Assembly (NCBI GenBank): GCA_038040445.1
Contig: JBBPIG010000002.1
Location: forward strand, 257,847 to 321,846
DNA: 64,000 nt
Source: Candidatus Onstottus frigus
Lineage (GTDB): Bacteria; Acidobacteriota; Blastocatellia; UBA7656
Reading direction: 5' to 3'
Positions 9,337 to 36,826 of the stretch are shown in pieces. Under the pieces are notes generated by a model. The model was not told where the DNA came from. It did not search any database and saw only the letters and a program-made list of their open reading frames with translations. The position numbers and the translations under genes were made by a program. How positions within the stretch are numbered: the stretch's first letter is position 1; the number at the start of each line of letters is the position of its first letter.

Positions 9337-10165
9337 TCAACGGCGTCGCAAACTGCTGAGCAGTGTGATGACCTTTATGACCGGCCTATTTGCCGCGCTG
9401 GTCATCATCGCCCTGATAGTCATCCTCGGTTACATCGCGGTTACCGGCGTGAGCGAATTGAACATCAGTTTCCTGATCAACAGCCCGAAGCCTGTCGGCG
9501 AACCGGGCAGCGGAATCGCCAACGCGATCGTCGGCACACTTATCCTGATCGGGATAGCGTCCGCAATTGGGCTACCGGTTGGAATACTGGCCGGGCTTTA
9601 TCTGGCCGAATTCGCTTCGAGTCGGTTCGGCAACGCGCTGCGCTTCTTGATCGACACACTGACGGGCGTTCCGTCAATCGTCGTCGGCGTGTTTGTATGG
9701 ACGGTGATGGTCCGTCCGATGGGTCACTTCTCGGCGATGGCTGGCGGTGTATCGCTTGCTATGATAATGATGCCGATAGTCGCGCGCACCACGGAAGAAA
9801 TGATTCGGCTCGTGCCTCAGAGCATGCGCGAGGCAGCGCTTGCGCTCGGCGCGCCGGTGTGGCGAATGAGCCTGGGAGTAGTGCTGCGGGCAGCAGCAGG
9901 CGGCGTTGCAACAGGCGCGATGCTTGCGATCGCTCGCATTGCGGGCGAGACCGCGCCGCTGCTATTCACTGCGCTCAGCTACAATTACATGAGCACGGAC
10001 ATAAATCAGCCGATCGCGTCGCTTACGTATCAAATTTTTTACTATGCAGGGTCACCTTACGAGCAGTGGCACGCGATGGCCTGGGCCGCAACGCTCGTGC
10101 TGGTTGCGATGATACTGGCTATCAACGTCGCGGTGAAGTTCCTTGCGAGGAACCGTTATCAATGA
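9323..10165 (+). CDS. pstA: Phosphate ABC transporter permease PstA
   Basis: Multi-TM permease overlapping pstC end; EAALALGA motif. Confidence 0.9.
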
Positions 10166-10431
10166 GCGCGCTACCAAACAAAAAGCGCGTGCTTCTTCTT
10201 TGCACAGGCAATTCGTGCCGCAGCCAGATGGCCGAAGGCTGGTTGCGCGAGCTAGCCGGCGATGAGTTCGAGGTGTCAAGCGCTGGAACCAATCCGACGA
10301 GCGTGAATCCGATGGCGGTCCGAGTGATGGCCGAGCTCACAATAGACAGAGCGTCAGATCAACATTTATGCAAAGGCGAAATCTCGCAGGAACAATCGTA
10401 CGCGCCCCTTATATGGAAAAGGAAACCGTAG
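10163..10431 (+). pseudogene. Truncated low-molecular-weight phosphatase / ArsC (LMW-PTP family arsenate reductase)-like gene remnant
   Basis: [62 protein letters not shown]: intact CX5R P-loop and first ~60 aa of the fold, then diverges and stops at ~89 aa (full length ~140); ATGA overlap with pstA stop. Confidence 0.5.
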
Positions 10432-11231
10432 ACCCCCAGTTCAAAGCCCACAACCAGTCGGGTGAGTTGGCGCCGGAGCTCAAGATGAGCATCGAGAAGC
10501 TGAACTTCTACTATGGCCGCGTTCGCGCTTTGAAAGACATATCGCTCGACATTCGCTCGAAACAGGTGACTGCCTTCATCGGGCCGTCAGGCTGCGGTAA
10601 GTCAACGCTGATTCGCACCTTGAACCGAATGAACGACGTGATCCCGGGAATTCGCGTCGAGGGTTGCGTGACGTTGGATGGTCAGGATCTGTACGCGCCT
10701 GCGACGGACGTGGTGGAGTTGCGCCGCCGCGTGGGGATGGTCTTCCAAAAAGCGAACCCTTTCCCGCGCTCGATCTTTGATAACGTCGCCTATGGCCTTA
10801 GAATTAACGGGATGACCCGCTCAAAGGCCGAACTCGCTGAAAAGGTCGAGGCCAGCTTGCGAGCGGCGGTTCTCTGGGACGAGGTGAAAGATCGCTTGAA
10901 GGAATCGGCATTCGGGCTGTCGGGCGGACAGCAGCAGAGGGTTTGCATTGCGCGAGCGCTCGCCGTAGAACCCGAGGTGGTTCTGATGGATGAGCCGACT
11001 TCGGCGCTTGATCCGATAGCAACGCAAAAGATCGAAGAGCTGATTGCCGACCTCAAGCAGAAGTACACGATTGTGATCGTGACTCACAACATGCAGCAGG
11101 CAGCTCGCATCTCGGACCGGACGGCATTCTTTTGGCTGGGAGAGCTGATCGAGTTCAACACAACGGAAAAGATATTCACGAAACCCGAAAAGCGAATGAC
11201 TGAGGATTACATCACCGGGAGATTTGGATGA
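10368..11231 (+). CDS. pstB: Phosphate ABC transporter ATP-binding protein PstB
   Basis: Walker [13 protein letters not shown] signature LSGGQQQR, Walker [13 protein letters not shown]; true start probably MEKETV at 10413. Confidence 0.9.
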
Positions 11232-25142: not shown

Positions 25143-26600
25143 TCAGTGTCGGAGTTTTTCTACCCAGCTCTTAACTAACTGAGGGATCGAATCAGCGGCG
25201 GCAGAATCAAAAGCGCGACCGCCCTCAGCGAAATGTGGCGCGTAAATACCATATATGTTTGACCAATCTCTCAGGCTATCAGCCGATCCACCCTCCACCA
25301 AGAGAAGGACAGGTTTGCTTTGCCCGTGGAAGAATCCAGCTTCATATGGAAGATTCTTACCCAGCACGTCGGACCCACTTAGACCTACGACAAGAACGAT
25401 AGCAGCGTCGGCGATCCACATTTTCGCTGAGACTTCATTAAAAATCAGGACCGGGGCCTCTGGCTCTCGTTCGGGGGACGCCTCCAGCGCCATGCATCCG
25501 TTAGCAACCAGGTTGTCGCGAACGCTGCGCGCAATTTGCTCGGCACGAGAGTCGCTAGTAAACCGACGGGAGACAAAGATTGGGATCTGGCCGTCCGGTA
25601 CGCGTTTCTGTTCATGCCGCACCTGGTAGAGAATGTTCTTCGGAACATGGGCAACGACTGCATCGGGAGTACGAGGGTAAACCGAATCAACGCCAGCTAT
25701 TCCATCGTTCATGTTCACTTTTATCAAATACTCTGGCGGAAGGTCGAGAAGGTCAGTTTCTACTCCTTCAAAAATACCATCACTGTTGCTCCCACCCTTC
25801 GGCTCACAGACGGCAACTAGGACAGCGTTACCCGCTGATGCTCCGCCGCGCCTTAAGAGCGTGGATAGTATGTTGAGATTACGGTCAACCAGAATTTGAG
25901 TTAGCACCTTCAAAGCTCCAGGCCGGTCGGAATGCTCGATAGATACGGTTTTCGCTCCCTTATAAGGAAATACGAAGCGGAGAAGGCGCTCATCCGTATC
26001 GGCTGAAACGACAGCTTTGGTCAAATCAATATTGTTGCTTAGACTCCCATAACGTCGGGCAATCTCTCTCTTCCAGCGGGTGCGCATCAGCCACCCGTGT
26101 TCAACCTCGCCTTTATCGGTCCACCTGACATGTCGCTGTGGAAAGTGCTCGATACGAACCCTTTCAAAACCCCGATCTGTGAGTGTCCGCCTTAAGGATT
26201 GCGATCGGACCGGGAAAGCTCTTCTGCCCTGCATAGGCTCACATATCAAGGTAATATCATGGAGCGCTCCTCCTTCCATTGTTATTGACTCGGCAAGCGC
26301 GATATTGAGATTGCTAACTACATCGACGGCACCAGCGACGACGCCGGGCTGATCCCGGCGACGACACTCAACGCGTATCATCCGATGACGCTGGAAAGGG
26401 TCGAGCACTGACACGATGAGATCACCAACCGGGCGTTCCCTTCCTTCAATTAACGATATGTAACATCGCGTATAGGATTGGAAGCCCAGAGGCGCGCGAT
26501 GCCACCAAGGCAGAGGTAAGTCAGTTCGATCCCGTGGCAGGCTTATTAGATCACCCAGAACTTGCATCTTGAACCTGTAAGTTAAGGGGCCAGCCAACAA
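25143..26600 (-). CDS. Tandem ACT domains fused to a C-terminal TIR-like (DUF1863/flavodoxin-fold) domain
   Basis: ACT1 RMIRVECRRRDQPGVVAGAVDVVSNLNIAL…; ACT2 TVSIEHSDRPGALKVLTQILVDRNLNILS…; C-terminus IPIFVSRRFTSDS… AKMWIADAAIVLVVGLSGSDV…YEAGFFHGQSKPVLLLV resembles a TIR-like betaA / alphaC-W…E…KPV pattern; ~50% GC; TTG start at 26600 or ATG at 26567. Confidence 0.5.
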   Translation of the reverse strand: MLAGPLTYRFKMQVLGDLISLPRDRTDLPLPWWHRAPLGFQSYTRCYISLIEGRERPVGDLIVSVLDPFQRHRMIRVECRRRDQPGVVAGAVDVVSNLNIALAESITMEGGALHDITLICEPMQGRRAFPVRSQSLRRTLTDRGFERVRIEHFPQRHVRWTDKGEVEHGWLMRTRWKREIARRYGSLSNNIDLTKAVVSADTDERLLRFVFPYKGAKTVSIEHSDRPGALKVLTQILVDRNLNILSTLLRRGGASAGNAVLVAVCEPKGGSNSDGIFEGVETDLLDLPPEYLIKVNMNDGIAGVDSVYPRTPDAVVAHVPKNILYQVRHEQKRVPDGQIPIFVSRRFTSDSRAEQIARSVRDNLVANGCMALEASPEREPEAPVLIFNEVSAKMWIADAAIVLVVGLSGSDVLGKNLPYEAGFFHGQSKPVLLLVEGGSADSLRDWSNIYGIYAPHFAEGGRAFDSAAADSIPQLVKSWVEKLRH

Positions 26601-27009
26601 ATTGTTGCTATTAGATCTGACTTCTGAACTATGGTGGCTCCTTCGAAGGCACTCGATACTACTATTTTGTCAAAAGGATGTCCACTACATAAGCACATTG
26701 AACTGAGGCTCCCGTTATACCAAGAGCAAGCATAGACTTCAGCCTATCCGAGATACTCCAGCCATCGACGTATTAAACTGACGTATTCAACCAATGTTAT
26801 TACTTAATCGGATTGCGAAGCCGCGTTAGCAGCGCCTACCAATCATGATCGGGGTTTGCGACATGACAACTACGTCACAAGTGGCAAGGAATGCGGTAGC
26901 GAGAGAGCCTGGAGGCTTAACACCGAAGGACGAAAACTTCATCAGTTAGCCCTCTCCGCAAGTTGTGGTCGTTGCGAGTCGCAGGAGAATGATTGCACCG
27001 TTTTTGATT

Positions 27010-28401
27010 TTACCGAACCTTTTCAAGTCGCCTTAGCGGCTTGCTCGCTACCGCACCTCGATCGCATACACCAGGAACTGCAAATCGCTGGCATAACTCA
27101 GCTACATCGGCAGCAACCATTTTGTGAATGGAAGGTCGATCGAGACTATTGCACACTCGGTCAATCAATCCCGCAATAACGGCCATTTCCGGCTCTTTCA
27201 TGCCCATCGACGTTACTGCCGGTGTGCCTATTCGAACACCACTAGTAACTGATGGCTTACGGGGATCGCCTGGCACCATATTGAAATTGGTGATGATCCC
27301 TGCCTGAGCGAGGGCTACCGCGAGATCTTTGCCTGAAAAGGGCCGATCCCGGAAATCCATGATCAGCATATGATTGTCTGTTCCACCACTCACTAACTGA
27401 TAGCCGAGGTTGATTAACTCAACACCTAGTGCGTTCGCATTGCGAACGACCTGCTCGCCATAGTCCCGAAACTCCCTAGTCGTAGCTTCCTCAAGGGCCA
27501 CGGCAAGAGCCGCAATAGTATTCATATGTGGGCCACCCTGAAGATGCGGAAAGACGGCCCTATCGATTCGCTTTGCGAGATTGAATTTTGAATCCGCGTG
27601 GTATTGCTCCTGATAACGATCCTCAAGGCGGCTTAGTATGAATCCGCCACGAGGACCTCGCATAGTCTTGTGAGCCGTGCTTGTAACCACATCACAAACA
27701 GGCACTGGATTTGGATGGGCACCAGCGACTATTAGCCCGCTTACGTGTGCGATATCAGCAACCAAATATGCGCTTACCTCACGCGCGATCTCGGCGGCGC
27801 GCTCATAGTCGAAGACGCGAGGATAAGCAGTGCCGCCAACCCAGATTAGCTTCGGCCGCTCACGGAGCGCCGTATCGCGCAGCACGTCGTAGTCAATCAT
27901 CCCGGTACGGTGATCAACTCCGTATGGGATACGCTGGTAGTCCGTTCCGGAGAAATTGACACCCCACCCGTGCGTTAGATGGCCGCCTTCCGGGACCGAC
28001 ATCCCCATCACCTTGTCTTCCCGCTTGAGAAGCGCGCGATATACTGCTTGATTCGCAGGCGAGCCGGAATAAGGCTGCACATTTGCGTGCTCCGCACCGA
28101 AAAGGTCCTTAAGCCGAGTCTTAGCGAGTTCTTCCAACTCGTCTACAATGTCGTTCCCTTCGTAGTAGCGCGCTCCCGGATAACCCTCAGAGTATTTATT
28201 GGTAAAGATTGATCCGGTCGCCTCAAGAACTGCTAGGGAAGCAAAGTTTTCGGAGGCAATTAGCTTGAGAGTTGTTAGCTCCTGTCTTTCCTGTCTCATC
28301 AACAATTCATAGACTGCAGGATCGACCTGTTTCAGGTGAGCCAGTGGACGACCGTTCGCCATGCCTACTATTCTCTTCGTTTTTGTCGCGGTGTCAATCA
28401 T
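27010..28401 (-). CDS. glyA: Serine hydroxymethyltransferase (island-borne copy) with short N- and C-terminal extensions
   Basis: Full SHMT homology including PLP-lysine region VVTSTAHKTMRGPRGG; AGGAGG 7 nt upstream of ATG 28401; ~52% GC. Confidence 0.9.
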   Translation of the reverse strand: MIDTATKTKRIVGMANGRPLAHLKQVDPAVYELLMRQERQELTTLKLIASENFASLAVLEATGSIFTNKYSEGYPGARYYEGNDIVDELEELAKTRLKDLFGAEHANVQPYSGSPANQAVYRALLKREDKVMGMSVPEGGHLTHGWGVNFSGTDYQRIPYGVDHRTGMIDYDVLRDTALRERPKLIWVGGTAYPRVFDYERAAEIAREVSAYLVADIAHVSGLIVAGAHPNPVPVCDVVTSTAHKTMRGPRGGFILSRLEDRYQEQYHADSKFNLAKRIDRAVFPHLQGGPHMNTIAALAVALEEATTREFRDYGEQVVRNANALGVELINLGYQLVSGGTDNHMLIMDFRDRPFSGKDLAVALAQAGIITNFNMVPGDPRKPSVTSGVRIGTPAVTSMGMKEPEMAVIAGLIDRVCNSLDRPSIHKMVAADVAELCQRFAVPGVCDRGAVASKPLRRLEKVR

Positions 28402-28818
28402 AAAACAGCCTCCTAGCTAGGATACCCTGCTGCCGCCAAATAATCCTCTAGAGACATTTAGCCGTCAACTCCGCAGCGGAAAAACCACAACGGGAACTCT
28501 GTCACACGCTGCATTGCGGTTTCCGTCATCTCTTTGGATGTCGCAGACTAGCACTTGCAAAGACTGCTGACAAGGGCCAACTTTTGGGGGCTTCAAGGCA
28601 ATGCACTGTTCTGAGACCCGCTGCTTACGCGAAGTGTTCCACGACCACCGCGGTTCAGACACGAGTCCACAGCGCGGCTGTTACATCTCTAATATCAAGC
28701 GATCCCAACCAATCCTCGTGCGCACCACTCCCTTGCCGTCTCGAAAACACTCAGCACGCTGAATTCCAGCCTACACCGTTTCGAGGCGCGCTCGCCGTGA
28801 TCGCTGTCACCCATAAAT

Positions 28819-29103
28819 GTGATCGCTGACACGTTTTCTCGCGAGCAAATGCCCTTCGCACTTTTCTTGAGTTCCAAGGGGTTGGATTCAAAGCAAACTT
28901 CTGGCATGGTTAAAAAGAGAGCGCGCGCTGGACTAGACACCGTCACCATTGCTTTTGCAAACCCTCAAGCAGTGTTGGAGCAAACATTGATCGTCCGCAA
29001 TCACCCGGAAACTCTTCGCGCCGGTCTTTTGTTTACGGGATACGGTCAGTGTGACGCCGAGCGTGTCCGCGAATTGTTGGAGGATCCTGTGACACTTAAC
29101 TGA
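28819..29103 (+). CDS. Possible small ORF immediately upstream of the NDT-like gene
   Basis: 94-codon ORF ending 23 nt before the next start; no homology recognised. Confidence 0.2.
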   Translation: MIADTFSREQMPFALFLSSKGLDSKQTSGMVKKRARAGLDTVTIAFANPQAVLEQTLIVRNHPETLRAGLLFTGYGQCDAERVRELLEDPVTLN

Positions 29104-29126
29104 CTTTGATGACAAGGAGCACTAGA

Positions 29127-30068
29127 ATGGACTCAAGCAAAACTACGCCAGGACACACTACCAACGGCGAGGAGTGCTTTGTGGTTATGCCGGTACGTGA
29201 TCCTGACGGCTACGCACCGGGACATTTTAAGCATGTGTTCGATGATATATTCGCACCCGCTTGTGACAAGGCTGGGTTTCGACCGATTCGCGCAGACCAG
29301 GTTCGAGCGACAAATCTCATACACCTGGACATTTTGCAAAAGCTAATCGAATCACCAATGGCGTTATGTGACTTAAGCAGTCGGAATCCAAACGTACTCT
29401 TCGAGTTGGGGCTCCGACAGGCTTTTGACCAACCAGTAGTCCTGGTTCGGGAAATTGGCACAGATGACATTTTTGATATCGGTCCGCTTCGATATACCGA
29501 GTATCACAAAGAGCGTATTTACCATGAGGTACTTGAAGATCGGGAGAAGATCGCAATTGCGATAGGCGCCACGCGCGAAGCATTCGAGAGTGGGCAAGGA
29601 GTCAACTCAATCATCAGATTACTGTCGCTCAGTCAACCCGCGAGCTTGGCCGATTTGCAAGAAGCTGACAGGGATCCCCTTCTCCAAATAATACGCGCTG
29701 AAATGAGTGAATTGAGATCTGAGTTTAAGGCTGCCTTGAGAATATCTGATGCTTCGCAGCTTGCGTGGGTCGCACGCTCGCTTCGAATCAACGAGGCAGT
29801 TGAGGAGATTGCTCGTCGCCAATTGGATAAACTTCAACAGGACTTATCAATTTCAGCGTCACTCGATTCTGAACCCGGGCCTTGGGCAGAGAGGAGAAGG
29901 AAGAAATGGGAATTGATTAAAGACGGGATAGGACTTTTAACGACCATGAGGCGAGCCGTAGGAGAAGAGTCAGACCTACTTTCGTCAATCAGCGCTTTAG
30001 CGAAGCGTTACAACGATGCCGAAACAGAGTACCTTGATGAAGAGATTGAAAACATAAACCCGAGTTGA
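29127..30068 (+). CDS. Nucleoside-2-deoxyribosyltransferase-like / TIR-like (flavodoxin-fold, SLOG-type) N-domain fused to a ~190-aa coiled-coil region
   Basis: AAGGAG 8 nt upstream of ATG 29127; ECFVVMPV…ALCDLSSRNPNVLFELGLRQAFDQPVVLV ('MP' + 'NPNVxFELG…PV' motif); rest is heptad-rich helical; ~49% GC. Confidence 0.5.
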   Translation: MDSSKTTPGHTTNGEECFVVMPVRDPDGYAPGHFKHVFDDIFAPACDKAGFRPIRADQVRATNLIHLDILQKLIESPMALCDLSSRNPNVLFELGLRQAFDQPVVLVREIGTDDIFDIGPLRYTEYHKERIYHEVLEDREKIAIAIGATREAFESGQGVNSIIRLLSLSQPASLADLQEADRDPLLQIIRAEMSELRSEFKAALRISDASQLAWVARSLRINEAVEEIARRQLDKLQQDLSISASLDSEPGPWAERRRKKWELIKDGIGLLTTMRRAVGEESDLLSSISALAKRYNDAETEYLDEEIENINPS

Positions 30069-30133
30069 GCCACTGAGCAATCTTACCTCACCAGGTTGCA
30101 TTCGGTTATACTGCAGGGCCTACGATTTGGCTA

Positions 30134-32170
30134 ATGGAAGAAGTATTCGGCCCGGGCGGATTAATCGCCCAACATCATCCCAACTACGAATACCGGCCCG
30201 GCCAGGTCGAGATGGCCGAGGCTGTCAACAATATCCTTAAGGACGGCGGCCTCGCCTTGATCGAAGCCGGAACCGGAACCGGCAAAACGCTCGCGTATCT
30301 GATACCCGCCATCGCAGCCGGACGCCGTGTGCTTGTGTCAACCGCGACAAAGAACCTCCAAGAGCAACTGCATAAAAAAGACGTTCCCTTTCTTCAACAG
30401 ATCATCCCGCGTGAGTTCAAAGTCACTTGCATGAAGGGCCGCTCGAATTACGTTTGCCTTCATCGGATGAAGAAGGCCGCCGGCACGCCGATGTTACAAG
30501 GACTCGAAGAGATCGATTACTTCGATCAGATTCGGAAATGGGCGGCCGAGAGCAAAACCGGCGACCGTGCCGAGCTAACCGACCTCCCCGAAGACCTTTC
30601 ATTCTGGCCCCAGATCGACGCGCGAGCCGATACGTGTCTCGGCCAGAAGTGTCCGGACTTTGACGCGTGCTTCATAACGCGAATGCGGCGCGAGGCGATG
30701 GAGGCCGACGTGGTGATCGTCAATCATCATCTCTTCTTCGCCGATCTCGCGCTGCGCGGCGGAGACTACGGCTCGGTGCTGCCCGACTACAATACGGTTA
30801 TCTTCGACGAGGCGCACGAGCTTGAAGACGTTGCCGCTTCTTACTTCGGCACAAGCGTTTCGAACTACCGCGTGAATGACCTCGTCCAAGATGCAAACAA
30901 ACTCGCGATCAAAGAGCCCGAACAGCAAGGAGAGTTGCTAAAGGCGCTGGCGAGATTGACTCAGCGATCGGATATGTTCTGGCTATCGTTTCGCGGAGGC
31001 AGCCTCGACGACGATTCGCCGGAAGGCGGCGGCAATGCTTCGCCATCCAGTGGCCGGTGGCAATCGAACAGAAACACATACCGGCCCCGCGGCTCTTCAC
31101 TGGATGGACGCTATCCGCTGAGCAGCTCGCGGTTCGCTCGAGTCGATCGCGAAGACAACCTTACACCGACCGCGACCGGTGAAGCTTACATCGCGCTCAG
31201 TAATGCCATCGATCGTCTGACAACCATGCTCGGCGTCGTGAAGGACCCGCCGGCGGAACTCGACAACATCGTTCGGCGAGCACAGAGCCTGAAGTTCGAT
31301 CTTGAGTTCGTCGTGAGCTGCGATCAGCCGGATTTCGTCTACTGGTGCGAAAAACGCGGCCGAGGCGTGTTCATCAATGCGACGCCGATCGACGTGTCCG
31401 GCATACTGGAAGAAAACCTCTTCGCCAAGTTGCAAACGGCCGTGCTGACTTCGGCAACGATGACCGCCGGTGCAGCCTTTGATTTCATCCGCGGCCGGCT
31501 CGGCATTCGACAAGCTCGTGAGTTGATCGTCGAATCTCATTTCGATTTTAAGAAGCAGGCAGTGCTTTATCTTCCCCGCGGCATGCCCGACCCGCGAAGC
31601 CGTGACTTCCTGGACGCGTCGGTGGACGAAATCGTTCGGATTCTGGAAGCGACTCGAGGGCGCGCGTTTGTGCTGTTCACGAGCCTGGCTTCGATGCGCG
31701 AGACGCACGAGCGAGTGCGCGACTTGATCGACTATCCAACTTTCATTCAAGGCCAGGGTTCAAAGACAGGTCTGCTCGATCGCTTTCGAAAGACTGAAGG
31801 GGCGGTGTTGTTTGCGACCTCTTCGTTCTGGCAAGGCGTTGACGTTCAGGGCGAAGCGCTCTCCTGCGTGATCATCTCGAAGCTGCCGTTCGCGGTCCCC
31901 AGTGATCCGGTCGTCGCCGCTCGCCAGAAATACATCGACGATCAAGGCGGCAATTCGTTTTATCAATACTCGGTGCCTCAAGCAGCGATCACCTTGAAGC
32001 AAGGTTTGGGCAGACTGATTCGTTCAACTAGCGACAAAGGTGTCCTTTCGATATTGGACCCGCGAGTGAAGACGAAGTCCTACGGAAGGGTTTTTCTCCA
32101 AAGCATTCCTCAATGCCGCGTGACTTCAAGCATCGAGGAAGCAGCGGCGATCTTCACGGATCATACCTAG
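30134..32170 (+). CDS. DinG/XPD (Rad3)-family ATP-dependent DNA helicase with FeS-cluster cysteines
   Basis: Walker A AGTGTGKT; four Cys (CMKGRSNYVC…C…CPDFDAC); DEAH box FDEAHE; helicase C-terminal motifs; ~70-aa low-complexity Ser/Gly/Arg insert. Confidence 0.85.
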   Translation: MEEVFGPGGLIAQHHPNYEYRPGQVEMAEAVNNILKDGGLALIEAGTGTGKTLAYLIPAIAAGRRVLVSTATKNLQEQLHKKDVPFLQQIIPREFKVTCMKGRSNYVCLHRMKKAAGTPMLQGLEEIDYFDQIRKWAAESKTGDRAELTDLPEDLSFWPQIDARADTCLGQKCPDFDACFITRMRREAMEADVVIVNHHLFFADLALRGGDYGSVLPDYNTVIFDEAHELEDVAASYFGTSVSNYRVNDLVQDANKLAIKEPEQQGELLKALARLTQRSDMFWLSFRGGSLDDDSPEGGGNASPSSGRWQSNRNTYRPRGSSLDGRYPLSSSRFARVDREDNLTPTATGEAYIALSNAIDRLTTMLGVVKDPPAELDNIVRRAQSLKFDLEFVVSCDQPDFVYWCEKRGRGVFINATPIDVSGILEENLFAKLQTAVLTSATMTAGAAFDFIRGRLGIRQARELIVESHFDFKKQAVLYLPRGMPDPRSRDFLDASVDEIVRILEATRGRAFVLFTSLASMRETHERVRDLIDYPTFIQGQGSKTGLLDRFRKTEGAVLFATSSFWQGVDVQGEALSCVIISKLPFAVPSDPVVAARQKYIDDQGGNSFYQYSVPQAAITLKQGLGRLIRSTSDKGVLSILDPRVKTKSYGRVFLQSIPQCRVTSSIEEAAAIFTDHT

Positions 32171-33404: not shown

Positions 33405-35480
33405 ATGGCAATAAAGAAGCAGCCACTTGTTTTGGGTGACCAAAGTCGCAAGTGTCAACCGCGTCTTCGGATGATCGCCAACGGGAGCGATAAGGTTAAC
33501 ACGGTAAGAGCCGAGCAATGTTCGTCGCTCTCGGTAACGAACTCCAAGCTTCTCAAAGAGATTCCCCTCCTGCGCGGCGAGGATGCGGTCCCATTGAAAA
33601 GGATCGAGCTTCCAAAAAGCGTCATGCCCAAGACACAAAAGCAGGTGCCCGCGGATATTCTCGCCAATGTCTTCATCGAAACACTCGATGCCACGGCGCC
33701 GCAGAAACGAAAGTTTCCCGGAGAGCGGGCGCGGAAATCGAATCTGGTGACCGCTCAGGTTCCTCTCAACAAGATCAAGGAGATTGCCGCCAGGGACAAC
33801 GTTACTTACATAGAGCTGGGCGAACGGCTCGCCGCACCCACGCCAACAGTCTCCGCCAAATCAGTCGCGGCGCCCTCCCAATCCCTGCGCCGATTCGGCA
33901 CCGCACAGCAAAGGAAGAACGCTGAGAATGTGCTGATAGGAATCATAGACGTGCAGGGCTTCGACTTCTCACATCCCGATTTTCTTGATGCCGGCGGGCA
34001 GACCAGGTTCGTACGGATCTGGGATCAAGGAGGCTCGACCCGCCCGCACCCAAAAGGCGTCAAGCAATTCGCTTACGGATCGGAATTTCGTCGAGAGCAT
34101 CTGAATGCCGCGATTGCGGCCGCGCCCAAACTCAAGCTTCCTCCTTTTGAGTTAGAACCGCAGTCACAGATGGCGGTTGGCTCGCACGGCACACACGTGG
34201 CTAGCATTGCTGCCGGCAATCGCGGCGTCTGCCCTGAGGCTATGATCGCCGGTGTGGTCATATCGCTTCCGGCGGCAGATCAGGACCGGCGTAAATCCTT
34301 TTACGATTCGACGCGCATTGCCGACGCCGTTGATTATCTCGTCAACCTCACGGCCGAGTTCTCCGCCAAACGGAAGGAGCCTGTGCGCCTGTCGGTCAAC
34401 ATCAGTCTGGGCACCAATGGACACGCGCACGATGGTTCGAGTGCGATCTCGCGCTGGATTGACGCCGCGATGTCCCTTCCGGGTCGCTGTGTTTGTGTTG
34501 CCGCGGGCAACGCCGGACAAGAAGTCGCCGCCTTTGAAGGCGACAGCGGATTCGTCATGGGCCGTATCCACACCAGTGGCGGCGTCCCCGCACGCGATCT
34601 GGTGAAAGACATCGAGTGGCTAGTGGTGGGCAACGGGATCGCGGATGTTTCCGAGAACGAGCTGGAGATTTGGTACAGCCCGCAGGACCGCTTCGCTGTG
34701 ATGGTTCGTCCGCCCAATTCGACGCAATGGATCGGCCCGGTTGAGCCCCGCCAGTTTATCGAGAATCGGCAACTCAAGGACGGGAGTTTTCTGAGCATCT
34801 ACAATGAGCTTTACTATCCGGCGAACGGGGCCAACTACATTTCGATCTACCTTTCGCCGCTGCTTTCCGAGAAGGGAATCGTCGGAGTGCAGGCCGGACG
34901 CTGGACGGTACGCTTGCTCGGGCGCGAGGTGCGCGACGGCCGCTATCACGCATGGATCGAACGTGACGACCCGCGCCCTCAGGGCCGGTTGGGCGAGCGG
35001 GAGATGTGGCGATTCCCCTCCTTCTTTTCCGAAGCGTCGAATGTTGACAACTCATCGGTCAGCTCGCTGGCCTGCGGCAACCGCGTTATCGGTGTGGCCA
35101 ACCTGGATGACGCGGCCGAGCGCATCCACATCACAAGCAGTCAGGGGCCAACTCGGGACGAGCGAAACAAGCCGGACACGGCGGCTCCAGGCACGAATAT
35201 CCCCGCAGCCAAGGGTTTCGCCGGGCCTGATGACCTGTGGATCTCGATGACCGGCACCAGCATGGCCAGTCCTTTCGTAGCCGGCGTCGCCGGACTGATG
35301 CTGGGCGTTGAGCCGAAACTCACCGCGGCGCAACTCGAAGGCATCATCATCCGCACCGCCCGCCCTCTGCCCGGGGCAAGCTTCAAATGGCTTAATGATT
35401 CGGGCTTCGGAAGGATTGATCCCGATGCTTGCCTGGCAGAAGCGGCGATGATCAATCAACGGGAGGACAAAACAAAATGA
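33405..35480 (+). CDS. Subtilisin-like S8 serine peptidase, apparently intracellular (no signal peptide)
   Basis: Asp GIIDVQGFD, His GSHGTHVASIAAG, Ser GTSMASPFVAGVAGLM; ~180-aa N-terminal region of unknown function. Confidence 0.85.
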   Translation: MAIKKQPLVLGDQSRKCQPRLRMIANGSDKVNTVRAEQCSSLSVTNSKLLKEIPLLRGEDAVPLKRIELPKSVMPKTQKQVPADILANVFIETLDATAPQKRKFPGERARKSNLVTAQVPLNKIKEIAARDNVTYIELGERLAAPTPTVSAKSVAAPSQSLRRFGTAQQRKNAENVLIGIIDVQGFDFSHPDFLDAGGQTRFVRIWDQGGSTRPHPKGVKQFAYGSEFRREHLNAAIAAAPKLKLPPFELEPQSQMAVGSHGTHVASIAAGNRGVCPEAMIAGVVISLPAADQDRRKSFYDSTRIADAVDYLVNLTAEFSAKRKEPVRLSVNISLGTNGHAHDGSSAISRWIDAAMSLPGRCVCVAAGNAGQEVAAFEGDSGFVMGRIHTSGGVPARDLVKDIEWLVVGNGIADVSENELEIWYSPQDRFAVMVRPPNSTQWIGPVEPRQFIENRQLKDGSFLSIYNELYYPANGANYISIYLSPLLSEKGIVGVQAGRWTVRLLGREVRDGRYHAWIERDDPRPQGRLGEREMWRFPSFFSEASNVDNSSVSSLACGNRVIGVANLDDAAERIHITSSQGPTRDERNKPDTAAPGTNIPAAKGFAGPDDLWISMTGTSMASPFVAGVAGLMLGVEPKLTAAQLEGIIIRTARPLPGASFKWLNDSGFGRIDPDACLAEAAMINQREDKTK

Positions 35481-36826
35481 AGCTGACCGTCTTTCAATCC
35501 GACAAGGGGGACTGCCTTCTGCTGACAGGCGCGGACGGGCGACGGATGCTGGTCGACGGCGGAATGCGTGCCTCTTATTCAGAGCACGTCGCGCCCGCGA
35601 CGGGCAAGCTGCGCGACAACGGCGAGAACATCGACGTCGTTTACGTCTCGCACATCGATCAGGATCACATATCGGGCGTGCTGCAAATGATGGACGACGA
35701 AGTTGCCTGGCGCATTCATGATTTCCAGGTGACTAACGACAACCCCAATCATAAGGAGCCCGATTCCCCACGCCCGCCGAAGGTCGCCCAGATTTGGCAT
35801 AACGCCTTTCACGACCAGATCAAAGACAATGCCGGTGAGATCGAGGAAATGCTGGCGGCTTCGGCGGCTATCCTCTCAGGCGCTGGGAGAGAGTCCGTCA
35901 GAGAGCTTGCGTCGGCGCAGGACGAGCTGGTGACAAGCATCGCCGAGGCGATCAAGCTGACCAAGCGCGTCAGCCCGGCTCAACTCGGCATCAAACTGAA
36001 TGTCCCGGCCAAGGGAAAGCTGATGCTGGTACGCCCCTCAACCACCGCCGCCATCAAACTCGGCGGCATGCGGTTCTCCATCATCGGGCCATTCTCCGCG
36101 GACCTGACGAAGCTGAGAGCGGAATGGAACAAGTGGCTGACCGATAATAAACCGCAGCTAAAATCCATACAGGCAGCGGCCAAAAAAGACGAGGCCAGTT
36201 TTGGCGCCGCCGAGATCGACGACCTCCTTCTGCCGAAGCTCGCGCAGGCGGAGCAGATGAGCGCGCTCTTGACGCCGGACGACTTGGCAACGGCGTTCAA
36301 ACTCGGCGAGCGCGAGAATGTTACAACTCCGAATCTCGCCTCGCTGATGTTCTTCGTCGAAGAGAATGGAAAGACGCTGCTTCTGACAGGCGACGGTCAC
36401 CATTTAGATATCTTGAAGGGTCTCAAACACATCAAGAAGCTGAACGGTTCGGGGGGTATCCACGTTAATGTTCTGAAGGTCCAGCATCACGGCAGCGAGC
36501 ACAACCTTAATGAAGCCTTCTGTCGAGCCGTCACCGCCGACCACTATGTTTTTTGCGGAAACGGTAAACATGAGAATCCTGACTTGCAAGTGATTGAAGC
36601 GATCGCGGATTCGCGCATCAGCACTGGCGCGAAGCTCAGCTCAAACCCTCAAGTGGGCAACCCGTTCAAGTTTTCGGTGAACAGCAGTTCAACCGTAACG
36701 AAAAACGCCGAGGCTAAGGCGCACATGAAGAAGGTTGAAAAACTCTTCAGCAACCTCGCCAACAAGAGCAATGGAAAGATGAGCTTTTTCTTTCTCAAAG
36801 GTTCGAGCTTCGAGGTTCAGATATGA
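35477..36826 (+). CDS. MBL-fold metallo-hydrolase-like protein (variant HxDxDH motif)
   Basis: VYVSHIDQDHISG, later LLLTGDG and KVQHHGSEHN; GGGAGG RBS; ATG overlaps S8 stop (ATGA). Confidence 0.6.
   Translation: MKLTVFQSDKGDCLLLTGADGRRMLVDGGMRASYSEHVAPATGKLRDNGENIDVVYVSHIDQDHISGVLQMMDDEVAWRIHDFQVTNDNPNHKEPDSPRPPKVAQIWHNAFHDQIKDNAGEIEEMLAASAAILSGAGRESVRELASAQDELVTSIAEAIKLTKRVSPAQLGIKLNVPAKGKLMLVRPSTTAAIKLGGMRFSIIGPFSADLTKLRAEWNKWLTDNKPQLKSIQAAAKKDEASFGAAEIDDLLLPKLAQAEQMSALLTPDDLATAFKLGERENVTTPNLASLMFFVEENGKTLLLTGDGHHLDILKGLKHIKKLNGSGGIHVNVLKVQHHGSEHNLNEAFCRAVTADHYVFCGNGKHENPDLQVIEAIADSRISTGAKLSSNPQVGNPFKFSVNSSSTVTKNAEAKAHMKKVEKLFSNLANKSNGKMSFFFLKGSSFEVQI

Follow-up and report, generated by a model that had tools for sequence, protein, structure and literature searches.

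The 64,000-nucleotide stretch of Candidatus Onstottus frigus analyzed here (contig JBBPIG010000002.1; hereafter the window) contains at positions 29127–30068 a forward-strand gene for a 313-residue protein of an unclassified family, and we propose with moderate confidence that it encodes a stand-alone, horizontally mobile conflict effector, most likely anti-phage and probably an NADase. This proposal draws on sequence comparison, structure prediction and analogy. The protein combines a strongly conserved, predicted enzymatic head with a fast-evolving helical tail, and its parts are positioned as follows.

29127..30068, forward strand: coding sequence of the 313-aa protein, stop codon included, from the ATG at 29127 to the stop at 30066–30068 (open reading frame [ORF] list and homologs).
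29113..29118, forward strand: Shine-Dalgarno-like AAGGAG, 8 nt before the ATG (read from the sequence).
29169..29591, forward strand: TIR/NDT-like (flavodoxin-like) catalytic head, residues ~15–155 (AlphaFold, Foldseek and PADLOC).
29403..29405, forward strand: GAG codon of Glu93, the predicted catalytic residue, in the motif NPNVLFELG (conservation and hhalign).
29592..29741, forward strand: linker, residues ~156–205 (conservation profile).
29742..30065, forward strand: fast-evolving helical tail, residues 206–313 (secondary structure, identity and rate of nonsynonymous change).

The sequence-only reading had described an N-terminal domain of about 115 residues resembling nucleoside 2-deoxyribosyltransferase (NDT) and TIR domains, and this holds at the level of fold and superfamily. 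An AlphaFold model of residues 1–175 built from 133 sequences (predicted local distance difference test score [pLDDT] 88, predicted template modeling score [pTM] 0.84) has a three-layer alpha/beta fold around a five-stranded parallel sheet, with elements in the order b-a-b-a-b-a-b-b-a (b1 15–20, a1 33–48, b2 51–55, a2 65–75, b3 78–82, a3 88–99, b4 104–109, b5 123–126, a4 132–155). The quoted motifs CFVVMP and NPNVLFELG...PVVLV are both present and lie among the invariant columns of a 37-homolog alignment; the proposed length was too short, with the fifth strand extending to residue 126 and the final helix to about 155. The top Foldseek match of the head model in the PDB is an NDT (8pqt, E=1e-4), followed by the MilB CMP/hydroxymethyl-CMP hydrolase (template modeling [TM] score 0.60–0.66) and DNPH1, and then by TIR-STING (9lmq, E=5e-4) and the SpbK TIR filament (9phb, E=1e-3); all five have a Foldseek probability of 1.0, with TM scores up to 0.66. 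The closest viral model is of a 303-aa Siphoviridae protein auto-named ‘CMP/hydroxymethyl CMP hydrolase’ (E=2.3e-10). The PADLOC model PDLC00733, a CBASS ‘Effector TIR’, matches residues 34–128 of the window protein (E=9e-6) and all 37 aligned homologs (best E 8.7e-10).

Matches to curated families are far less clear. The window protein has no match in Pfam at E<=1 to any TIR family of the STIR clan (PF01582, PF13676, PF10137, PF08937 and others) or to the NDT- and SLOG-type models to which its motifs had been attributed (PF05014, PF15891 and SLOG), and an NCBIfam scan of it gave no usable match. PF05014 is the commonest weak Pfam match, below threshold in 12 of the 37 homologs (best E 0.028), and scores 14–18 bits, short of its cut-off of 28.8, in relatives from phages and plasmids and in a paralog; PF15891 is absent from the Pfam families listed for the 37 homologs. 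PF10137 is found in one of the 37 core members (best E 0.06) and at E 0.011–0.026 in phage and plasmid relatives and a paralog, and PF13271 (DUF4062) matches neither the window protein nor the 37 homologs at E<=1. Searches of PDB sequences with the single sequence and with a profile returned nothing for the head and only chance helical matches to the tail.

A putative active site can be assigned by comparison with human DNPH1, for which the sequence was verified against PDB 8qhr. The family profile aligns with DNPH1 over 47 ungapped columns (hhalign E=0.0046) spanning the IH..D motif and the glutamate nucleophile, and pairs Glu93 with the nucleophile Glu104. Glu93, in the helix that follows strand 3, does not vary among the 37 aligned sequences and is at least 90% conserved in the 133 sequences. 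We also sought on helix 2 a second acidic residue corresponding to DNPH1 Asp80 and NDT Asp72; Asp68 is invariant in the 37 sequences, and by hhalign alone its counterpart is DNPH1 Gln79, the residue preceding Asp80. The profile, model, Foldseek and hhalign evidence places the predicted head in the TIR-DrHyd(NDT)-SLOG class of N-glycosidases (PMC9503650), outside all curated families. The invariant predicted catalytic glutamate and the PADLOC and Foldseek TIR matches support an effector role. We note that Cys17, Cys46 and Cys81 are also invariant in the 37 sequences (among the 133, Cys17 is invariant and Cys81 at least 90% conserved); three conserved cysteines are unusual for the head of a cytoplasmic enzyme, and a structural or redox role is possible.

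The head and tail evolve very differently. Mean pairwise identity is 61.5% over residues 15–175, 28% over residues 176–205 and 13.5% in the tail, and in pairs with 98% identical heads the tails are equal in length and 57–90% identical. By the Nei-Gojobori method the proportion of nonsynonymous differences (pN) is 0.011–0.021 in the head, where synonymous differences (pS) are saturated at 0.70–0.78, and 0.09–0.25 in the tail. The dN/dS ratio (omega) is ~0.01–0.06 for the head and roughly 0.1–0.45 for the tail; between the window gene and its closest relative the values are ~0.06 and ~0.44 respectively. We count this combination of a conserved head and a variable tail in support of the effector reading, and purifying selection across the whole head would fit an enzyme held in a multi-interface oligomer or filament. 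In the comparison of window coordinates 29127–30065 with the closest relative (locus L011, coordinates 10001–10942), the tail has a pS of 0.25, well below the 0.60 of the head, even though its protein sequence is the more divergent, which suggests recombination within the gene.

The family is large and sporadically distributed. An identical 313-aa protein, P0001, is annotated as a ‘hypothetical protein’ in an Acidobacteriota metagenome-assembled genome (MAG), and there are 1731 homologs at E<=1e-3 in a 90%-clustered set. An exhaustive search of a library clustered at 50% identity gave 863 representatives at E<=1e-30, 8612 at 1e-10 and 18728 at 1e-3, and the best 150 are mostly 270–340 aa long (range 162–350). 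Among 185,579 species, each represented by one genome, a scan identified 269 matching loci with 42–68% head identity in more than a dozen bacterial lineages, including Acidobacteriota, Bacteroidota, Pseudomonadota, Chloroflexia, Verrucomicrobiota, Planctomycetota, Clostridia, Actinomycetota and Cloacimonadota, and in two archaeal MAGs (Archaeoglobaceae and Thermoplasmatota). Relatives are also present in 51 GenBank phage records, 82 plasmid records and 168 IMG/VR viral contigs; those in Staphylococcus and Streptococcus phages are distant. A literature search found no paper describing this protein family, which we regard as new but of a kind already known.

The position of the gene in the window argues for an insertion at a variable site. 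It is transcribed divergently from the SHMT gene (27010–28401, reverse strand), as had been noted, and a DinG-like helicase gene (30134–32170, forward strand) begins 66 nt downstream. The order RodZ, ACT-domain protein, SHMT, family gene, DinG is kept at the locus of the closest relative, which is 82% identical, and in the more distant L184 (ACT protein 43% identical) SHMT and the ACT protein are followed by a 195-aa signal-peptide protein and DinG; we considered whether this 195-aa protein could be a relative of the family, and it is unrelated. Because SHMT and the ACT protein remain together in L184 without the family gene, it is these two that are conserved as a pair; the site ahead of DinG varies, and the family gene is an insertion in it. 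Its low G+C content is consistent with this: the gene is 0.489 G+C (0.48 at third codon positions, GC3), compared with 0.558 for the window, while SHMT and the ACT gene have 0.528 and 0.525, and GC3 of DinG and RodZ is 0.65–0.67. The sequence-only reading had remarked both on the shared low G+C content and on a strong AAGGAG ribosome-binding site, and both are borne out. Promoter, terminator and repeat searches around the gene gave nothing informative, and no mobile-element boundaries were seen. The proposed co-occurrence of the gene with ACT and TIR proteins does not stand: the ACT protein tracks SHMT, even where the gene is missing in L184, and no ACT protein is near family members at the other genome loci, so a link between the two is rejected. 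The sporadic distribution, low G+C content and variable slot before DinG together support mobility.

We compared gene neighborhoods at 81 non-redundant loci (80 genome loci and the window). All-against-all clustering of ORFs and comparison of the same-strand flanking genes found no conserved partner; no neighbor family occurs in more than nine of the 81 loci, such neighbors being 3–8 kb away, and the genes downstream of family members are mutually unrelated, which supports a gene that functions alone. Nearest neighbors at chromosomal loci include integrases, IS21 and DDE transposases and group II intron reverse transcriptases, together with AAA_15/21 ATPases, PDC-S01 (DUF4143), PIN and TIR_2 proteins. 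One locus (L001) is a defense island with a PF10137 TIR protein, AAA_15/21, CdiI and SduA_C, and another (L004) is surrounded by many toxin-antitoxin genes of the PIN and PhdYeFM types. Linkage of homologs to TIR proteins, which had been suggested, is only occasional (two of 138 nearest neighbors, plus L001, L097 and L099).

In viral contigs the neighbors are terminase, HNH, integrase, repressor and antirepressor genes, with HNH and terminase the commonest by PHROG counts, and two positions recur in prophages. The first is just upstream of HNH or terminase genes, as in a Dorea phage, a Clostridium merdae prophage and the PHROG counts. The second is in the lysogeny module, directly 3’ of a CI-type repressor and co-oriented with it; at L123 the family gene is 13 nt downstream of a CI/S24 repressor, and in a Pantoea P2-like element the order is cI-gene-int. 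Staphylococcus aureus phage P630 carries the gene inside its replication module, on the opposite strand; an E. coli phage has it between nuclease and helicase genes, four genes downstream of a PF10137 TIR-like gene, and a Klebsiella lambdoid phage has it in the nin region. The viral contigs, the CI-adjacent placements and the L001 island support a conflict or prophage context, and the placements downstream of CI and on the opposite strand in P630 indicate expression in the lysogen.

From these observations a mechanism can be suggested. Temperate phages would carry the gene, which would also insert at variable sites in chromosomes; the head would act as a TIR/NDT-like N-glycosidase in which Glu93 attacks the N-glycosidic bond of a nucleotide, most likely NAD+ if TIR-STING, SpbK, Swarozyc and the retron NDT effectors are a guide; the C-terminal helical region would keep the enzyme as an inactive oligomer, recognize an invader-derived trigger, or both; and activation would deplete the nucleotide and abort infection. 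The substrate, the part of the tail in autoinhibition or triggering, the oligomerization and the defense phenotype are all things that we infer.

The closest parallel in architecture is Swarozyc KpSwz, a DUF4062 TIR-like NADase whose N-terminal TIR-like head (E97) is combined with helical stalks and an auxiliary domain; activated by the phage portal, it depletes NAD+ (bioRxiv 10.64898/2026.05.01.722283). Both are single proteins with a five-stranded TIR-like head, a catalytic glutamate (E97 in Swarozyc, predicted E93 here) and helical stalks, and both have a patchy, horizontally transferred distribution beside varied defense genes. However, none of the 37 members scanned matches DUF4062 (PF13271), and whereas Swarozyc binds the portal through a larger winged-helix auxiliary domain, the window protein has only ~110 aa of helices. 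With PF10137-type TIR effectors (TIR-STING/Cap12 and Pycsar TIR) and SpbK the family shares the fold (9lmq, E=5e-4; 9phb, E=1e-3) and the motif R-x-N-V-x-F-E-L-G after strand 3, and the PADLOC model matching all 37 members is that of a CBASS TIR effector; the family differs in having neither a cyclic-nucleotide sensor domain nor a cyclase neighbor, and in a head whose conservation greatly exceeds that common in TIR families. The nearest sequence relatives of the head outside the family are ‘TRAFs-binding domain-containing’ proteins of 410–450 aa, which on plasmids share 30–40% identity over residues 17–126, have a PF13281 (MAP3K_TRAF_bd)/PF20308 C-terminal part and are found beside TIR and DUF4231 genes; these have a TPR-S scaffold of ~300 aa in contrast to the short variable helical tail. 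TPR-S/‘TRAFs-binding’ proteins have been discussed as relatives of the regulatory region of animal ASK kinases. Fused sensor-effectors of the CapRel type likewise have a conserved enzymatic N-terminus and a fast-diverging C-terminus and are prophage-borne single genes. The analogy with CapRel is one of logic only: the fold and chemistry are unrelated, and tail autoinhibition is a proposal for this family.

The strongest competing explanation, which we consider unlikely, is a nucleotide-sanitizing or nucleotide-depleting N-glycosidase of the DNPH1/MilB/NDT type, acting on (deoxy)nucleoside monophosphates such as 5-hydroxymethyl-pyrimidine nucleotides, CMP or deoxynucleoside monophosphates rather than on NAD+, with a role either in metabolism or against modified phage nucleotides. 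The NDT/DrHyd superfamily (NDT, DNPH1/Rcl and MilB/BlsM) provides the best structural matches (NDT at E=1e-4, MilB at TM 0.60–0.66, and DNPH1) as well as the name of the closest viral model (E=2.3e-10), PF05014 is the most frequent weak Pfam match (12 of 37), and the DNPH1 alignment is free of gaps over 47 columns and includes the aligned glutamate nucleophile. Very strong purifying selection suits a fixed small-molecule substrate, and in the window and L011 the gene adjoins SHMT, a supplier of methylene-tetrahydrofolate. This adjacency is nevertheless confined to two closely related MAGs, in a setting where SHMT pairs with the ACT protein, and a sporadic, mobile and prophage-borne distribution is ill-suited to housekeeping metabolism; the NDT/DrHyd enzymes are found in metabolic or biosynthetic contexts. 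Every PF05014 match is below the cut-off, Asp68 is one position off DNPH1 Asp80 by hhalign, the loop after strand 1 reads YFCGSIRGG in DNPH1 and CFVxMPxxDPxGYxxGHF in the family, and the family has the additional helical tail. NDT-like defense effectors of the retron type, moreover, are reported as NADases.

Somewhat less probable again is an enzyme that benefits the phage, a counter-defense or host-takeover function expressed lytically that cleaves a host immune signal or another host nucleotide, with the chromosomal copies being remnants or domesticated versions. Placement on the same strand upstream of terminase in the Dorea phage, in the nin region in Klebsiella and in the nuclease-helicase gap in the E. 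coli phage is in keeping with this, as is the prevalence of HNH and terminase genes among viral neighbors. There is also the precedent that virus-encoded SLOG members of the TIR-DrHyd-SLOG clade are predicted to process immune signals derived from ADP-ribose (PMC9503650). Against it are the copies directly 3’ of CI repressors and the one facing the lytic genes in P630. Most genome loci are without adjacent phage genes, the window copy is among housekeeping genes, and a head that is ~50–60% identical across archaeal and diverse bacterial hosts fits poorly with lineage-specific immune signals.

Several observations weigh against the proposal of a mobile anti-phage effector itself. Foldseek ranks N-glycosidases of nucleotide monophosphates and nucleosides highest, not NADases, and the curated Pfam models for TIR, NDT and DUF4062 all fail on the window protein and the 37 homologs. 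Purifying selection on the head is unusually strong for an immune effector, and positive selection on the tail is not shown, synonymous sites being saturated in the Bacteroidota set and omega being ~0.44 in the one unsaturated pair, so that relaxed constraint explains the tail, at an omega of ~0.1–0.45, equally well. Occurrences of defense and mobile genes as neighbors are raw counts, and the genes flanking the window copy are housekeeping genes. Many phage copies share a strand with early or late lytic genes, a placement that a phage-benefit function fits as well as defense does. Finally, what is known of the family comes from sequences, predicted structures and gene context.

The small ORF upstream of the gene bears on a further alternative.

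28819..29103, forward strand: 94-codon ORF, outside the gene (ORF list).

It is present as had been reported, and could in principle be the small, fast-evolving partner of the gene in a two-gene toxin-antitoxin-like module, with the effector as the toxin half. It is immediately upstream, a gene caller reports it, at 84 aa, on a Logan assembly contig where the family gene is identical, small ORFs lie beside many homologs, and L004 is in the PIN- and PhdYeFM-rich region. But a search of 5.8 billion proteins recovered no homolog of the ORF beyond the ORF itself, no family model matches it, its region is absent from the shorter and mostly unalignable intergenic region of L011, and by eye it has no ribosome-binding site; it is probably not a gene. 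The small ORFs flanking other homologs are mutually dissimilar products of a crude ORF caller, and several loci are flanked solely by large unrelated genes, all of which makes such a module very unlikely. A non-catalytic nucleotide sensor or adaptor, whose head binds a ligand and whose helical tail relays the signal to another protein, would have precedents in the inactive clade members that act as nucleotide sensors (PMC9503650), in the distant relatives with the head fused to TPR-S/MAP3K_TRAF_bd scaffolds and in tails replaced by MarR- or Sigma70_r4-type winged-helix domains, yet it too is very unlikely given that the predicted catalytic glutamate and many surrounding polar residues are invariant and that no conserved partner gene to receive the signal was found at the 81 loci.

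If the effector reading is right, there is a large and unnamed TIR/NDT-like effector family, comprising hundreds of 50%-identity clusters in bacteria, two archaeal MAGs and temperate phages, that Pfam, NCBIfam and most PADLOC models miss. The contrast in conservation between head and tail, the placement 3’ of prophage repressors and the ends resembling the SSB tip (see below) would make it attractive both for defense discovery and for structural work on the switching of TIR-like enzymes, and the head offers a sequence link to the bacterial TPR-S/‘TRAFs-binding’ proteins.

The linker and tail show further variation. In the linker, conservation is high to about residue 175 (NSIxxLLSLxxPAxL) and lower beyond it (LQ...E...LR), reaching family-wide to about residue 205; the NSI...PA.L motif (160–174) is within the head block of 61.5% identity. 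In a full-length model (pTM 0.49) pLDDT is below 50 at residues 159–177 and high over ~230–310, and the packing of head and tail is not fixed by the model. Helices are predicted at 184–211 (ending within the tail), 218–245, 253–278 and 285–310, while some homologs have winged-helix domains of the MarR or Sigma70_r4 type in place of the tail. The C-terminal portion had been described as a heptad-rich long coiled coil, and its helical nature stands, with four predicted helices of ~26 residues. The heptads are not confirmed, as a crude test of a/d periodicity with 2000 shuffles per helix found no significant signal in any of the four tail helices (p 0.27–0.66), with best-register a/d hydrophobic fractions of 0.50–0.62.

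Two C-terminal variants stand out. A conserved C-terminal helix, F-(R)-x-L-M-E-R-I-H-R-A, marks a subfamily at 23 of the 81 genome loci (for example L034, L038, L043, L046, L057, L065, L071 and L073), an archaeal member included; it contrasts with the hypervariable tails in the clade of the window protein. The second is an acidic ...D-D-I-P-F tip at the C-terminus of 12 of 269 proteins and at four of the 81 loci; in the looser form ...(D/E)D(I/L)PF or PPF it is seen in a minority of members (homologs P0009, P0011, P0012, P0014, P0026, P0116, P0129, P0138, P0150 and P0167; loci L022, L030, L084 and L067). This tip resembles the C-terminal tip of bacterial SSB, and may either give a hold on the SSB interaction hub or mimic it. 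A more elaborate idea, which we offer as a long shot, is that the family is a new class of single-protein immune sensor in which a near-invariant, filament-forming N-glycosidase head is armed by a diversifying helical ‘bait’ tail; the DDIPF-tipped subset would then be decoys, triggered when a phage protein that hijacks the SSB-tail hub binds the mimic, thus coupling replisome takeover to nucleotide depletion.

Some neighbors recur within lineages. In the Bacteroidales loci L040, L051, L061 and L078 a 412-aa AAA_14+DUF4143 ATPase (PADLOC PDC-S01) ends 20–57 nt upstream of the family gene, and in the Clostridia loci L077, L079 and L091 a SAM-methyltransferase-like protein of ~280 aa is encoded 11–17 nt upstream. 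Neither is a candidate for a family-wide partner, since the pairings are lineage-restricted. Two distant viral relatives (L163 and L166) are preceded by genes for DUF4145 proteins, with an overlap or a 12-nt gap. Divergent paralogs of the head are also encoded near family members (L001 322–1200, L033 11009–12220, L069 5755–6993 and L099 4983–6326), among them a 292-aa copy 7 kb upstream and a 403-aa protein immediately downstream. Other head paralogs are fused to TPR-S/MAP3K_TRAF_bd and are located beside TIR, QueC-like and DUF4231 genes on an Agrobacterium plasmid.

The ACT-domain gene of the window (25143–26600, reverse strand) is directly downstream of SHMT (27010–28401, reverse strand), and the same pairing is present in L184 (8437–11458). 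The C-terminal ~130 aa of its product look NDT/TIR-like (‘NLPYEAGFFHGQSKPVLLLVEGG’) and align with the head weakly but in a topologically sensible way (E=0.018), from which we judge that this region probably has the same broad fold, without the protein being a partner of the family. The ACT protein has ~89 matches, with PF05014 detected in one member, and it may be an amino-acid-regulated N-glycosidase linked to glyA. The ~200 nt 5’ of the SHMT start (28402–28600) are conserved in L011 while the remaining intergenic region is not, and Rfam gives no match within 26000–30500, the SHMT leader included. Downstream of DinG, the segment 32311–36826 (forward strand) contains a TPR fragment followed by overlapping genes for an S8 subtilase (33405–35480) and a metallo-beta-lactamase-fold protein (35429–36826), the latter matching PADLOC models for LmuA (5e-47), Avs1a and reverse transcriptase-associated metallo-beta-lactamases; the subtilase/metallo-beta-lactamase pair is missing from the syntenic region of L011 and may be a small defense island.

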